Under the pieces are notes generated by a model. The model was not told the origin of the DNA and did no database searches. It saw only the letters and a list, made by a program, of their open reading frames with translations. Position numbers and translations under genes: made by a program. 64,000 nt of DNA from Christensenellales bacterium (GTDB lineage Bacteria > Bacillota > Clostridia > Christensenellales > Aristaeellaceae), in the NCBI GenBank assembly GCA_045132495.1, contig JBGUSK010000075.1, positions 350 to 64,349 on the forward strand. The letters are read 5' to 3'. Below are positions 51,713 to 55,446 of the stretch, piece after piece (within the stretch, counting starts at the first letter, position 1; every line of letters starts with the position of its first letter).

Positions 51713-52969
51713 ATGAAAAAGCCCACGGTGCTGCGAAAGTCCGCCGGACTGGTCGCCACGTTTTTGCTGGCAGCGAGCTGGTTCTCCCCCATGCAGCAGA
51801 CGCTCCGGGACATGCCCGATACCCTCGCCCTCACACAGGGGCAGATGCGCACCATCAGCCTTGGCGGGTTAGCCCTCCAATCCGACGCGCTGACCGTCAC
51901 GTCCTCCGGGGACGAAACCCTCGCTTCCGTCGGGGCGGTGAATGTTGTCAGCCAGCAGACCGGCACGTCAGAGATGCTGCTGACCCTTTTCGGCATCCCG
52001 CTGAAAAAGGTAGAGGTACGCGTCAGCCCGGAGAAGCGGCTGATTCCCGGCGGAATGGCCCTCGGCGTGGCCATGCGCACGGATGGAGTGCTGATCGTCG
52101 GAGTAAGCGACGTGACAGAGGGCGTCAGTCCTGCCAAATCCGCCGGACTGTCTGCCGGAGATGTGATCACCAGCATCAACGGCAAGACGGTCACCACCGC
52201 TGACAGCTTGACCAGTTTGCTCAGCAGCTTCGGCCCCCAGCCGGTGCACATCACCTACCGCCGCGCCGGAGAAAACCGCACAGCCCTGCTCACCCCGCAC
52301 AGGGACGAGGCTACCGGTGCCGTCCGGCTGGGCGCATGGGTACGCGACTCCACCGCAGGCGTGGGCACGCTGTCCTTCTACGACCCGGACACAGGGCACT
52401 ACGCAGCCCTTGGGCACGCCATCACAGACGGAGACACCGGCTCCGTTCTGTCCGTGAGCGAGGGACAAGTGCTGAAGGCGAATATCGTTGCCGTGCAGAA
52501 GGGACAAAAGGGTGTTCCGGGAGAACTCAAGGGCAGCTTTCTCCGGGAAGGCGAAGTACTGGGGAACATCCGCCGCAACTCCATCCTGGGCATCTACGGC
52601 GAGCTGGACGAAGCAGCCGTGAACCCCCTTTACCCGGATGGACTTCCAATCGGGCTTCGTTCCGGCGTCCACACTGGCGAGGCAAGCATTTTGTCCTCCG
52701 TGGACGGCGAAGGTGTGAAGGAGTACGCCATTGAGATCACCCGAGTGAACCCTCAAAGTGCACCAGCGCCCAAATCCATGGTGCTGCGGGTAACAGACGA
52801 GCGCCTCCTGGCTGCCACCGGCGGCATCGTACAGGGTATGAGCGGGAGCCCCATCATTCAGGATGGGCGGATTGTGGGGGCGGTGACGCATGTGTTTGTG
52901 GGGGATCCCCAGCAGGGGTATGGATTGTACATTGATTGGATGTTGCAGGAGAGCAGCATAACTGATTGA
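51713..52969 (+). CDS. spoIVB: SpoIVB peptidase (S55), PDZ plus protease domain
   Basis: Trimmed to ATG 51713 (SD AAGGGAGG). PDZ segment [13 protein letters not shown], His region ALGHAITD, Ser region [21 protein letters not shown]. Confidence 0.85.
   Translation: [418 protein letters not shown]
52886..52969 (+). repeat. spoIVB 3'-end repeat, copy 1 (functional end of the gene)
   Basis: Encodes [27 protein letters not shown]. The core 52892-52942 recurs at 53845-53895 and 55303-55353. Confidence 0.85.
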
Positions 52970-52977
52970 TACCATTA

Positions 52978-53007
52978 TTGTAAAACAAGTAAAGGTTGTG
53001 ATATAAT
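52978..53007 (+). promoter_or_regulatory. Promoter of the cassette-1 gene
   Basis: TTGTAA, 18-nt spacer, extended -10 TGaTATAAT (52999-53007). Confidence 0.5.
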
Positions 53008-53048
53008 GCAGTAAAGTCCTTATATTTTCGTGCAAGGAGGACACTCTT

Positions 53049-53819
53049 ATGTTTGTGCGAGTTACAGACCGAGCTACAGGAAAGCACTTCAAATCCATCG
53101 TGTATGGTCTTTTGAATTGCGGCTATTATGAAGAAGCGATCGTACTGAATCCTCTGGGAAACTGTTTTGAGATTATCAGCTATTTTGACAGAAGCAAGAC
53201 CGGCAAGGATTTTGATCCATTTCAGACAGGCTATGAAATCATTCATCCGGATCGTGGAGATTGGATAACAGCAGGTGCAAAGGAACTGCATATACTCAAA
53301 CCTGTGTTAAGCAGGACTCTGGGATGTGGAGTTACAGCACAGATGACAGGATACGAAGATGTGTTTTCTGATGTTGATAAACTGGTGCAGTTTCTGAATC
53401 AGCGCAGCATTCCGGCTAAGGACGCTTGGTTTTCTGTTCGCCAACTGCCTGATATCCAGGAGTGGAAGTACATTTCAACACAAGAAGATGCAGATGCCTT
53501 TATGGATATCTTCGCTGGATTCCATGATTCCACACTAAACAAAATGATCTATGAAGAAGAAAATCAAAGAACTAAACTCACAGCGACTTTTGATAATCGT
53601 GGATGGTATGGAATTGTTGAACTATGCTTCGAGGGCGTAACAGAGATTCATATCCGCCCGCCCAAGGAAAACCGCCTTCGCGATATTTGCTGTGCAATGC
53701 TTCGGATTGTGGATGAAATGGTTGTCTGGGCTGACGATTGGTGTGAAAACATCGAAGACATCCAGCCTGATTGGAGTTGTGTCAAGGCACTCAGTTTGAA
53801 ATGGCGAAGAATTGAGTGA
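53049..53819 (+). CDS. Hypothetical 256-aa cytoplasmic protein on lower-GC cassette 1
   Basis: ATG 8 nt after AAGGAGG. A sampled line is 42% GC. No family recognised. Confidence 0.6.
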   Translation: MFVRVTDRATGKHFKSIVYGLLNCGYYEEAIVLNPLGNCFEIISYFDRSKTGKDFDPFQTGYEIIHPDRGDWITAGAKELHILKPVLSRTLGCGVTAQMTGYEDVFSDVDKLVQFLNQRSIPAKDAWFSVRQLPDIQEWKYISTQEDADAFMDIFAGFHDSTLNKMIYEEENQRTKLTATFDNRGWYGIVELCFEGVTEIHIRPPKENRLRDICCAMLRIVDEMVVWADDWCENIEDIQPDWSCVKALSLKWRRIE

Positions 53820-53919
53820 AGATTGGTATCATCGACGTACATATGTGTTTGTGAGTGACCCCACGCAGGGGTATGGGCTGTATGTGGATTGGATGCTGGG
53901 GGAAGCGGGGCAGACATAA
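53795..53919 (+). repeat. spoIVB 3'-end repeat, copy 2 (orphan) with shared upstream segment
   Basis: In the tail frame: [29 protein letters not shown]. The upstream 53795-53836 resembles 55249-55294. Confidence 0.8.
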
Positions 53920-53923
53920 AAAT

Positions 53924-53946
53924 GCACGTCCCGGCAAAGGACGTGC
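53924..53946. terminator. Bidirectional hairpin terminator after repeat copy 2 and the MFS gene
   Basis: 8-bp stem GCACGTCC / GGACGTGC, with an A-run upstream. Confidence 0.6.
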
Positions 53947-53955
53947 GGAAGTACA

Positions 53956-55218
53956 TTATTCGCAATGGGTCAGAATGAATGCCTTGGTGTGTCTGTTCAG
54001 GCAAACGTACAGTATGGGGAGTAGCGCCAGTGTGATGCCTGCGGCAAAAACCAGGTGTAACGGGAAAACATCCCCCAGAAAACCAAAGACCACCGCGGAC
54101 AGCGCCATGCCGCCACAGCAGGAGGACTGGACAAAGCCCAGGATAGCACTGCGGTTCTCTTCCGGCAGGGCCAGCATCAGGGCGGCGTTGAATACGGCGT
54201 TGCCGGCTGCATTGGTCAGGCTGGCAAGGAAAAAGAGTACACACATGGGTATGAACTGCGTGGAGAAATATGCCAGCAGGCTGAACACTCCGAAGAGGGA
54301 AAAGCCAAGAGTCATCGTCCAGAAGCGTGCCTTGGGCGTCAGCTTCACAATGCCCAGAAACAGCACGCACAAAAGGGAACCTGCTGTCATGACCGCAGAA
54401 AGGTAGCCGTACATATCCACGGTGAACCCCTTTTCCAGGCAGAAGGGCAGCATGAGGGTCGTGGGACCTGCACAAAGCAGGTTCAGCAGCAGGATGCTGG
54501 GGACAAACAGGCGCAGGCAGCCGTCTGAAAAGATGGTCTTCACGGCGCTGCCCATATCCCGCAAGAGGCCACTGGCTGTAACCTGTGTGCCTTGCTGGGG
54601 AGTTCTTGGCACATGGATGAAGAACTCAGAGACAGCGGAATACAGGTTGCTCAGGCCGTTGATGACCACAATCAGCGGTACGCCGAGGAAAGCTACCATC
54701 ACGCCGCTGAGGGCTGAACCAGTCAGGTTGATAAGCGATGAAACACCTGAAAAAACAGACTGGCCCTGTACCATATCATTGCGAGGGATAATATCGATCA
54801 TCAGCGTGCTGACAGCAGGAGAATAGAAAACGCTGCCAAAGGCGGCCAGCAATGCCACGATCAGCACGATGGGTACACTCAGGGTATTCTGCCAGGCCAA
54901 TAGTCCTACGACCAGCATGAGCAGGCCCTGCAATACATCGATGCCTACGATCATCCACTTGCGGTTGCATTTGTCCACGATGCTGCCGCAAAGAGGAGAG
55001 AAAAACATGGTCACAAACATCGATATGGAGGACATGATTCCCATCAGGGCGCTGGAACCTGTCTGCTGATAGACCCAATAGCCGATGGCAACGCTGTACA
55101 TCAAATCGCCAATGGTGCTGACCGTGTTTCCCTGCAGAAGCAGAATATAGTCTTTATTCCATAGCTTCTTATGCATAAAGGAAAGTTCCTTTCGTTCCTT
55201 TTCGAAAGGATTATACAT
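53956..55218 (-). CDS. MFS transporter (cassette 2)
   Basis: 420 aa and 12 TM. The start could be ATG 55218 or ATG 55176 (MHKKLWNKDY). Confidence 0.8.
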   Translation of the reverse strand: MYNPFEKERKELSFMHKKLWNKDYILLLQGNTVSTIGDLMYSVAIGYWVYQQTGSSALMGIMSSISMFVTMFFSPLCGSIVDKCNRKWMIVGIDVLQGLLMLVVGLLAWQNTLSVPIVLIVALLAAFGSVFYSPAVSTLMIDIIPRNDMVQGQSVFSGVSSLINLTGSALSGVMVAFLGVPLIVVINGLSNLYSAVSEFFIHVPRTPQQGTQVTASGLLRDMGSAVKTIFSDGCLRLFVPSILLLNLLCAGPTTLMLPFCLEKGFTVDMYGYLSAVMTAGSLLCVLFLGIVKLTPKARFWTMTLGFSLFGVFSLLAYFSTQFIPMCVLFFLASLTNAAGNAVFNAALMLALPEENRSAILGFVQSSCCGGMALSAVVFGFLGDVFPLHLVFAAGITLALLPILYVCLNRHTKAFILTHCE

Positions 55219-55248
55219 TATGCTGTTGCTGAATACAATGAGAGCCGC

Positions 55249-55377
55249 TTTGGAGTTGGATTAGAATTGCGTGAAAAGCTTCGACATCATCGACACACCT
55301 ACGTGTTTGTGGCGGATCCTCAGCAAGGGTATGGGCTGTATATTGATTGGATGCTGGGGGAGGCGGGCGCTGTCTGA
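55249..55377 (+). repeat. spoIVB 3'-end repeat, copy 3 (orphan) with shared upstream segment
   Basis: [30 protein letters not shown]. This explains the tail of spurious ORF 55171..55377. Confidence 0.8.
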
Positions 55378-55400
55378 TCCGGCGCACCACCATACAAAAA

Positions 55401-55430
55401 GCACACCTGACCATTTCCGGCCGGGTGTGC
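55401..55430. terminator. Bidirectional hairpin terminator after repeat copy 3 and the ABC importer operon
   Basis: Stem GCACACC / GGTGTGC, with A-run upstream and T-rich run downstream. Confidence 0.6.
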
Positions 55431-55446
55431 TTATTGTTATGCGAGG

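Follow-up and report, generated by a model that had tools for sequence, protein, structure and literature searches.

The 3′ end of spoIVB in a 64,000-nucleotide (nt) stretch of Christensenellales DNA (GenBank assembly GCA_045132495.1, contig JBGUSK010000075.1, positions 350 to 64,349; this whole stretch is called the window below) carries a tandem array of two cassettes, each of which begins with a version of the last codons of the gene. The cassette array is real, it recurs in related genomes and it has been active recently. In the reading that we consider probable, the codons T-H/V-F-V of spoIVB (the slash marks the junction) are an attachment site for site-specifically integrating mobile DNA in uncultured gut Clostridia of high guanine + cytosine (GC) content, served by a trans-acting recombinase and filled by accretion resembling that of cis-mobilizable elements (CIMEs) and pseudo-staphylococcal cassette chromosomes (pseudo-SCC). 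An incoming unit would insert exactly at a GT dinucleotide, the gene would be kept intact by the tail that the unit brings along, and the earlier tail would be pushed downstream as an orphan.

The final 27 codons of spoIVB recur twice downstream on the same strand, at 53839–53919 and 55297–55377. These orphan tails are copies of the last 25–26 codons of the gene and delimit two units of low GC content. The features of the locus are as follows.

51713–52969, plus strand: spoIVB, intact (Pfam Peptidase_S55 and PDZ).
51713–52891, plus strand: host-derived body of spoIVB, codons 1–393 (98.8% nt identity with contig L059 up to 52891).
52866–52891, plus strand: left (B) arm of the putative attachment site, the final ~26 nt of the spoIVB body, GGCGGATTGTGGGGGCGGTGACGCAT (from the B-arm table).
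52892–52893, plus strand: junction dinucleotide GT no. 1, putative exchange point between host gene and cassette 1 (all arrays and the empty/occupied pairs have their boundary at this same GT).
52892–53844, plus strand: cassette 1, 953 nt, GC 0.43 (absent from the same-species contigs L059–L062; also composition, promoter scan and P-arm consensus).
52892–52969, plus strand: replacement spoIVB tail of cassette 1.
52978–53007: strong promoter-like site of cassette 1, TTGTAA-18-TATAAT with a TG extension (promoter scan).
53049–53819, plus strand: cargo of cassette 1, a 256-amino-acid (aa) open reading frame (ORF) of a small unannotated family.
53823–53844, plus strand: right (P) arm of cassette 1, TTGGTATCATCGACGTACATAT (P-arm consensus).
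53845–55302, plus strand: cassette 2, 1458 nt, GC 0.53 (the SpoIVB of L059, P0001, ends with its tail; a homologous MFS cassette is present in L010).
53845–53919, plus strand: orphan tail 2, the tail in use in strain L059.
53924–53946: bidirectional hairpin in cassette 2.
53956–55176, minus strand: cargo of cassette 2, an MFS_1/MFS_3 efflux-type transporter with a length of 406 aa in the gene calls of public contigs (Pfam MFS_1, 1.5e-28).
55281–55302, plus strand: right (P) arm of cassette 2, TCGACATCATCGACACACCTAC.
55303–55377, plus strand: orphan tail 3, starting with junction GT no. 3 (55303–55304) and running on into the host downstream region in every contig of the species.
55394–55437, no strand assigned: terminator-like GC hairpin 3′ of orphan tail 3 (inverted repeat I17), shared with the convergent permease gene.
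55447–56520, minus strand: convergent ABC permease gene (Pfam BPD_transp_2).

The Peptidase_S55 match of the intact protein (E 3.5e-84) covers profile positions 2–210 of 210 and extends up to residue 411 of 418; a PDZ domain is found as well. When the tail is searched against the window with tblastn, the two orphans are recovered with E 1.7e-10 and 3.6e-11 and the next match has E 8.8. The 64 kb contain no further tail copies, and a repeat scan of the same 64 kb revealed no other meaningful short-range direct repeats. An earlier reading of this DNA from its letters alone (the sequence-only reading) had placed the end of spoIVB at 52969 and the orphans at the positions given above. All coordinates and peptides agree with ours, the similarity is significant, and the repeat is specific to spoIVB and not a generic dispersed one. 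The GC hairpins noted there after copies 2 and 3 map to 53924–53946 and 55394–55437, and the promoter before the 256-aa gene and the MFS transporter between the copies were likewise recovered, as a promoter-like site and a Pfam MFS_1 match. The ~45 nt of similarity upstream of the two orphans hold up in part: the proximal ~22 nt are present beside every orphan in all species, while the score of the distal part is reached by 126 of 2000 shuffles.

The three tails are 79–84% identical over their first 19 codons and the differences are mostly synonymous, which argues that each tail evolved while it was used as coding sequence. Between copies 1 and 3, 11 of these 19 codons are identical, six differ synonymously and two non-synonymously. 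In the 51-nt cores the corresponding numbers are 11, five and one, and our recount thus returns exactly the five synonymous changes among six differing codons that had been reported. The GC content is 0.44 for the ORF of cassette 1, 0.54 for the MFS gene and 0.62 for spoIVB, and the surrounding genes are at ~0.62.

Related loci (L numbers) were taken from GTDB genomes and metagenomes of uncultured Clostridia labelled Christensenellaceae, Ca. Egerieenecus and similar. Among their products, P0001 is a SpoIVB that is 98% identical to that of the window, yet ends with the tail of the window's first orphan. Its contigs (L059–L062, from four independent samples) have the same synteny as the window, with 98.8% nt identity upstream and 99.3% downstream. 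Cassette 1 is precisely absent from them and spoIVB abuts the MFS cassette, the BLAST breakpoints overlapping exactly on the repeat. Orphan tail 2 was presumably displaced upon the arrival of cassette 1, and orphan tail 3 is likely to be the oldest copy and the ancestral tail. The MFS cassette would then have entered first, with the 256-aa cassette as the gene-proximal, strain-variable unit. In L010 a homologous MFS cassette and a homologous right flank directly follow spoIVB.

L059 (11180–11215) and the window (53845–53880) also differ by five synonymous substitutions within ~25 nt to the right of the junction (TCC versus AGT for Ser; GGC TAC versus GGG TAT) and by a TGA/TAA stop codon, the remaining 4 kb being 99.3% identical. 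This mosaic tract suggests gene conversion or an extra cycle of gain and loss. Two independent assemblies of the window's species (L001 and L002) stop within orphan copy 3, ~155 nt beyond the MFS start, and in L002 a run of Ns (9094–9249) marks a scaffold gap within orphan copy 2. Repeats or strain mixtures break assemblies at this locus, and metagenome assemblies tend to break or to be mis-scaffolded there. No alternative contexts of the downstream permease were found in the window's species.

A second species, similar to Ca. Egerieenecus merdigallinarum, displays both states of the site. It is empty in L019, L042–L044 and L053–L055, it is occupied by a 935-nt unit in L056 and it is occupied by a different unit in L058. 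The empty site (L042 and others) reads GCGGTAACCCAC-GT-TTTCGTCAGC. In L056 the left boundary (attL) reads ...ACCCAC-GT-GTTTGTGTCAGAT and the right boundary (attR) reads GGTATCACCGACACACCCAT-GT-TTT(-)GTCAGC; the attR arm of L058 differs. Position −1 travels with the left arm and +3 with the right one, which confines the exchange to the GT.

Five further species-level genomes (L010, L011, L018, L024 and L040) carry arrays of one to three units. Three orphan tails lie 3′ of spoIVB in L010 and two in L011, where the second is truncated and located 8.5 kb further on; L018, L024 and L040 have one each. In every orphan the homology to spoIVB begins at the same GT, within codons T-H/V-F-V, and is preceded by the arm T.GGTATCAYCGACACACCCAY (~22 nt), where the intact gene reads GGATCATCGGCGCGGTGACSCAY. 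At the peptide level, the orphan signature is YHR[HR]T[HY]VFV versus GAVTHVFV in the intact gene. With the arm and the GT in common, a unit can be taken to extend from one GT up to the base that precedes the following GT. Each unit then has a GT and a tail on its left and a P arm and a GT on its right, and contains no recombination or transfer genes. Its plan is a replacement spoIVB tail, an own terminator or promoter with one or two accessory genes, and the conserved ~22-nt arm. We catalogued ten units of 580–2065 nt and one of ~8.5 kb. The small units have a GC content of 0.41–0.53 versus ~0.62 for the host genes of the window, and the 8.5-kb unit is mostly at ~0.58–0.65. The cargo is unrelated from unit to unit: an MFS transporter, a 111-aa helix–turn–helix (HTH) protein, an energy-coupling factor (ECF) S-component with an HTH-AAA_28-CYTH protein, BspA-type leucine-rich repeat (LRR) proteins, a MORN lipoprotein, and a ribbon–helix–helix (RHH) protein with a membrane protein. 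Cassettes have their own promoters and terminators and are found in both orientations.

The candidate attB is GGATCATCGGCGCGGTGACCCAY-GT-GTTTGTGAGTGAYCC. Just left of the junction spoIVB reads GGATCATCGGCGCGGTGACCCAT, and the cassette arm GGTATCATCGAC...ACCCAT is similar to this sequence but shorter by a net 3 nt; the two may share a protein-binding motif, or the arm may descend from spoIVB. The orphan junction pattern ATCAYCGNCRYACNYAYGTGYTYGT gave no matches in IMG/VR or in JGI metagenomes. In another species (L073–L080; SpoIVB P0080, with the unusual tail SSPDQGYGVYIDWMLEETNKIE) an 84-aa ORF on the minus strand follows spoIVB, and an orphan tail or arm was not detected; the region may be an old unit with a decayed orphan.

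The absence of cassette 1 from L059–L062, the empty and occupied sites of the second species and the fixed GT bear out what the sequence-only reading had proposed, namely serial insertion at the 3′ end of spoIVB in which each segment brings a replacement C-terminus, following the logic of tRNA islands. They also show that the arrangement is not common to all relatives. Movement between species is seen as well. The cassettes of L018 and L024 are 84.3% identical over 975 nt versus 66.0% for the flanking spoIVB bodies, which shows that one cassette has spread horizontally. Among 123 full-length SpoIVB alleles, 82 distinct tail ends are present, and 139 pairs have bodies (last 250 residues) that are at least 95% identical but different tails; many of these bodies are 100% identical.

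These results bear on an alternative scenario, in which the end of spoIVB was duplicated in tandem in situ and then diverged, the intervening genes being ordinary neighbours. The repeats are indeed direct and closely spaced, and some shared cassettes diverge about as much as spoIVB. Precise presence and absence within a species, the low GC content of the units, the identical junction and arm in unrelated units, the cassette that is 18 points more similar between species than its flanking gene, and the mostly synonymous differences, which point to tails that evolved in coding use, make this very improbable.

Nor does it seem credible that the orphans are functional themselves, as a regulatory RNA, a small peptide gene or the template repeat of a diversity-generating retroelement. 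In the window the reading frame of both orphans is still open and ends with a stop codon, but orphans decay elsewhere: L056 has a frameshift, L024 has GYG changed to GDG and a lost stop codon, and the second orphan of L011 is truncated. Rfam searches of four related loci gave nothing at the junctions. A diversity-generating retroelement was rejected because the substitutions show no A bias and no reverse transcriptase (RT) was matched when the genes from 48531 to 60246 were scanned with Pfam.

RecA-dependent (Campbell-type) integration of circular or incoming DNA carrying ~80 nt of spoIVB tail would require no dedicated enzyme or site. The copies share 60–80 nt at 70–84% identity, with near-identity in L010 and L040, and no recombinase was found. 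Gene conversion between copies is evident: the identity of tail and orphan in L010, L024 and L040, together with the synonymous tract of L059, indicates that RecA-type conversion also shapes the tails. As the source of the insertions, RecA is nevertheless improbable. Every informative empty/occupied pair places the exchange where the homology just begins on its left side (−1 to +3), with essentially no homology leftward that could support strand invasion. Unrelated cassettes in different species have the same ~22-nt arm abutting the same GT, and elements without tail homology use exactly this GT with a mirror-image arm.

The latter elements are seen in six SpoIVB protein clusters that are truncated right after the junction (...GAVTHV[CYS]V[RSF][PRG] followed by a stop). 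The DNA was read for four of the six (L063, L064, L081 and L082). After the GT, they have a mirror image of the cassette arm in place of the tail, for example GT-GTACGTACGCCCATGATACC, the reverse complement of which is GGTATCATGGGCGTACGTAC-AC. The attP that would follow from this is 20 nt - GT - 20 nt, symmetric about the dinucleotide. L081 runs on into ParA, ParB_N and HTH_36 genes, which point to a large plasmid-like element or integrative and conjugative element (ICE), and L064 has the same left end. In the stretches that were read, the only likeness to the cassettes that we noted is the ~20-nt arm.

The ParB family of the L081 element is very large. Through ParB homologues we found L087, which belongs to the same element family, is not at spoIVB and has no arms. 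Defence genes accompany it: AbiH, a CD-NTase and Cap15 pair resembling a cyclic-oligonucleotide-based antiphage signalling system (CBASS), and Metallophos/radical-SAM genes are located upstream of ParA (L087 1455–8905). L088, a decayed copy of the ParAB element family located away from spoIVB, has fragments of a large serine recombinase at its flanks (PF00239; PF07508 and PF13408). The best NCBIfam matches of these fragments are XisF and CcrC, and their similarity to CcrC, CcrA and CcrB is weak and far below the cut-offs. L063 contains an internal fragment of a group II intron RT (11400–11539; ltrA-like, 76% nt identity to an Enterococcus faecium plasmid copy), 224 nt inside the element and at the contig end. 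When the L063 insert was compared with phages and plasmids, only this fragment matched. A group II intron had been considered, since some insertions begin with GTGCG, arms end in AY and L063 has the RT fragment; it was rejected because Rfam detects no intron RNA and because the RT piece is internal and lies where the contig ends. In viral contigs the palindromic attP pattern has seven matches, all of them ordinary hairpins and about the chance number by a rough estimate, and the P′ arm pattern has none.

Given site-specific integration, we lean towards a large serine recombinase as the enzyme. The partners would share the GT alone, with no identical overlap of 6–8 bp, the symmetry is centred on the GT, and there is a circumstantial association with large serine recombinases. 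A tyrosine recombinase acting on the same architecture, be it the integrase of an unseen island or a host Xer-like or integron-like enzyme in trans, would use a 6–8 bp overlap around CAYGTG. The integration at a 3′ end with restoration of the tail is classically carried out by tyrosine integrases (PMC5704250), and the centre CAYGTG is near-palindromic with inverted arms on either side. Such an enzyme is quite unlikely here. The partners are identical at the GT alone, positions −1 and +3 are different and stay linked to their respective arms wherever a junction is informative, and the 20-GT-20 symmetry centres on the dinucleotide. No Xer-like or integrase match is found near any array, and the sites do not fold like attC. 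Folded attC-like sites were rejected on single-stranded DNA folding z-scores of −2.0 to +0.7 across ten sites.

The preferred route would employ a trans-acting large serine recombinase carried by large elements at spoIVB. A large element (P-GT-P′) would integrate at the gene-proximal B-GT-B′; excision between its attL and a distal attR would take the adjacent cassette along; the composite would be transferred to a new host and integrate there; and the large element would finally leave alone, depositing a new tail, cargo and P arm beside spoIVB. Only attP × attB and attL × attR reactions would be needed, and the route would explain the anatomy of the units, the gene-proximal position of the variable unit, the cassettes without recombinase and the truncated alleles. 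Older arrays would be remodelled further by conversion among their copies.

Several points weigh against site-specific integration with accretion. No recombinase was found in the cassettes, in the window or in the 10 kb around any array, in line with the sequence-only reading, which had seen none; the cassette ORFs have no recombinase domain, and a phmmer screen of all loci was negative. For the window, ORFs were called by codon-position GC and checked visually and by phmmer against two reference recombinases, and the Pfam scans covered the genes from 48531 to 60246. The link to serine recombinases is circumstantial, as the fragments are in one decayed relative and not at spoIVB. A canonical large serine integrase is not known to recombine a P-GT-B′ site with attB; a P-GT-B′ circle is therefore not expected to be joined to attB, and accretion with cis-mobilization, which the model needs, would be the most economical route. 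No composite of large element and cassette and no circular form was observed in the assemblies, and the model gives no origin for the first tail-bearing cassette. The large elements are known from their left edge alone, over ~0.1–2.1 kb, where the contigs end. The difference between the window and L059 fits either a gain in the window lineage or a loss in L059. The MFS and 111-aa cassettes are just 3–4 points more similar between species than spoIVB, which suggests that some units are old and perhaps vertically inherited. In L010, L024 and L040 the gene tail is the same as the orphan of that genome over its first 38–55 nt, and the junction is unreadable there. Finally, all data are metagenome assemblies.

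The end of spoIVB may instead be an integron-like capture platform, with single-gene cassettes (~22-nt arm and 25-codon tail) individually moved by a recombinase encoded elsewhere. We regard this as unlikely. If true, each capture would rewrite the last ~18 residues of the S55 domain, and turnover would diversify the SpoIVB signalling protease and tie the exchange of accessory genes to the variability of a sporulation checkpoint. The tail-less class would then represent the first case of intervening elements in a sporulation gene that is expressed in the forespore.

The 256-aa protein of cassette 1 has no Pfam, NCBIfam or PADLOC match, and its family comprises 141 cluster representatives among 1.84 billion, the nearest being 44% identical. 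The alignment-based AlphaFold (AF2) model has a predicted local distance difference test score (pLDDT) of 94.7, and the single-sequence model, with a pLDDT of 37, is unusable. Foldseek finds no significant fold match for the protein. One domain has a weak likeness to the Bacillus cereus polymorphic-toxin immunity protein 8owu (probability 0.90–0.95, target-normalised TM 0.56–0.60, E 0.2–0.4). The MFS transporter of cassette 2 matches the NCBIfam 2A0121 H+ antiporter subfamily below the cut-off. In the window itself, a chromosomal AAA_28 and CYTH protein (40840–41949, minus strand) is 65% identical to the 434-aa cargo of the third cassette of L010 (L010 13960–15264), which has an extra N-terminal HTH; cargo can thus be a paralogue of ordinary host genes. 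Just past the last orphan of L010 there is an AbiGi defence gene with an adjacent 413-aa ORF without family match (L010 15800–17880).

The upstream neighbours of spoIVB are GH120 and NAGPA genes. No Spo0A motif is present in the 64-kb window, in agreement with the earlier remark that spo0A is not next to spoIVB here. Four more patches of low GC content (0.41–0.47 versus ~0.60) are located at 6531–7269, 32808–33616, 45159–45629 and 62916–63999. They contain small ORFs without the host bias in GC at third codon positions and are probably further small acquired segments; the repeat scan detected no duplication of a flanking gene end.

In the literature searched, no paper linking spoIVB with attB was found. 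The end of spoIVB would be a hotspot not previously described there, and the uncultured gut Clostridia that have it are a widespread group. Units that repair their target and lack a recombinase can be miniature, with one gene in 0.6–2 kb, a scale between integron cassettes and SCC/CIME islands. The candidate attB/attP pair is short (~20 nt - GT - 20 nt) and would belong to a probably new large serine recombinase, an enzyme class sought for genome engineering. Because the C-terminal ~25 residues of SpoIVB are often foreign in this clade, neither phylogenies nor strain typing should rely on them. With the junction-truncated alleles comes the question of how a gene that is needed in the B. subtilis forespore can harbour an element.

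Among known systems, integron arrays resemble the spoIVB array in their very small, mostly single-gene units without recombinase and in the strain-variable unit next to the platform. They differ in having intI, attI, Pc and folded attC hairpins, none of which is seen here; no integrase was found in the 64 kb. Unlike integron cassettes, the spoIVB cassettes have their own promoters and terminators and both orientations, and the platform is the coding end of a protein gene. Islands in tRNA and tmRNA genes also bring a replacement 3′ end and leave the displaced end as a direct repeat. Unlike a tRNA, the spoIVB target is protein-coding, and the replacement is therefore constrained at the amino-acid level, as the synonymous divergence reflects. 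The spoIVB site also differs from these islands in having no adjacent integrase.

In B. subtilis, spoIVB is expressed in the forespore. Known intervening elements of sporulation genes (skin in sigK, SPbeta in spsM, vfbin, vrin and gin in gerE), several of which have large serine recombinases, occupy a precise site in the gene; they lie in mother-cell genes and are excised in the mother cell, and spoIVB is not among the named targets (PMC4191935). The tail-less alleles of L063, L064, L081 and L082 resemble such elements, and only there is the coding sequence interrupted, at the sequence level. The window cassettes, in contrast to skin and SPbeta, leave spoIVB uninterrupted.

Accretion of CIMEs is established, and cis-mobilization of CIME–ICE tandems has been demonstrated (PMC5704250). 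Like the CIMEs and accreted ICEs (ICESt1/ICESt3 at the 3′ end of fda in Streptococcus thermophilus; tandem islands at tRNA and ribosomal-protein genes), the spoIVB units have no integration or transfer genes and keep sites of the attL and attR type. CIMEs are described as decayed ICEs or integrative and mobilizable elements (IMEs) with tyrosine integrases, whereas the junction pattern at spoIVB favours a serine recombinase. A further apparent difference is that, in the stretches read, the ~20-nt arm is the sole likeness noted between the cassettes and the large element.

Together with CIME accretion, SCC and pseudo-SCC are the closest parallels. Pseudo-SCC are ccr-less elements at the 3′ end of orfX, which is kept intact (PMC6243372). 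SCC and pseudo-SCC share with the spoIVB array the site-specific entry at the 3′ end of a conserved housekeeping gene without disrupting it, tandem units separated by target-end repeats, and varied accessory cargo (PMC6243372). Their recombinase-less units are thought to depend on CcrAB/CcrC large serine recombinases in trans (PMC6243372), and the spoIVB units are likewise without recombinase. The spoIVB array differs in its target gene, host clade and site sequence, which is not the rlmH/orfX insertion site sequence (ISS)/att core, and no Ccr-like gene was found beside any array. Its units measure 0.6–2 kb and are mostly single-gene (one is 8.5 kb), while SCC elements span several kb to tens of kb, and ~25 codons are replaced each time, compared with a few terminal codons in orfX. 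The locus belongs to neither SCC nor CIME, as it has another target, another host and another site and is not shown to be related to Ccr or an ICE. Accretion of recombinase-less units at gene 3′ ends is already known; the new aspects are the miniature size of the units, the replacement of a 25-codon protein tail and the resulting tail diversity in a sporulation protease.

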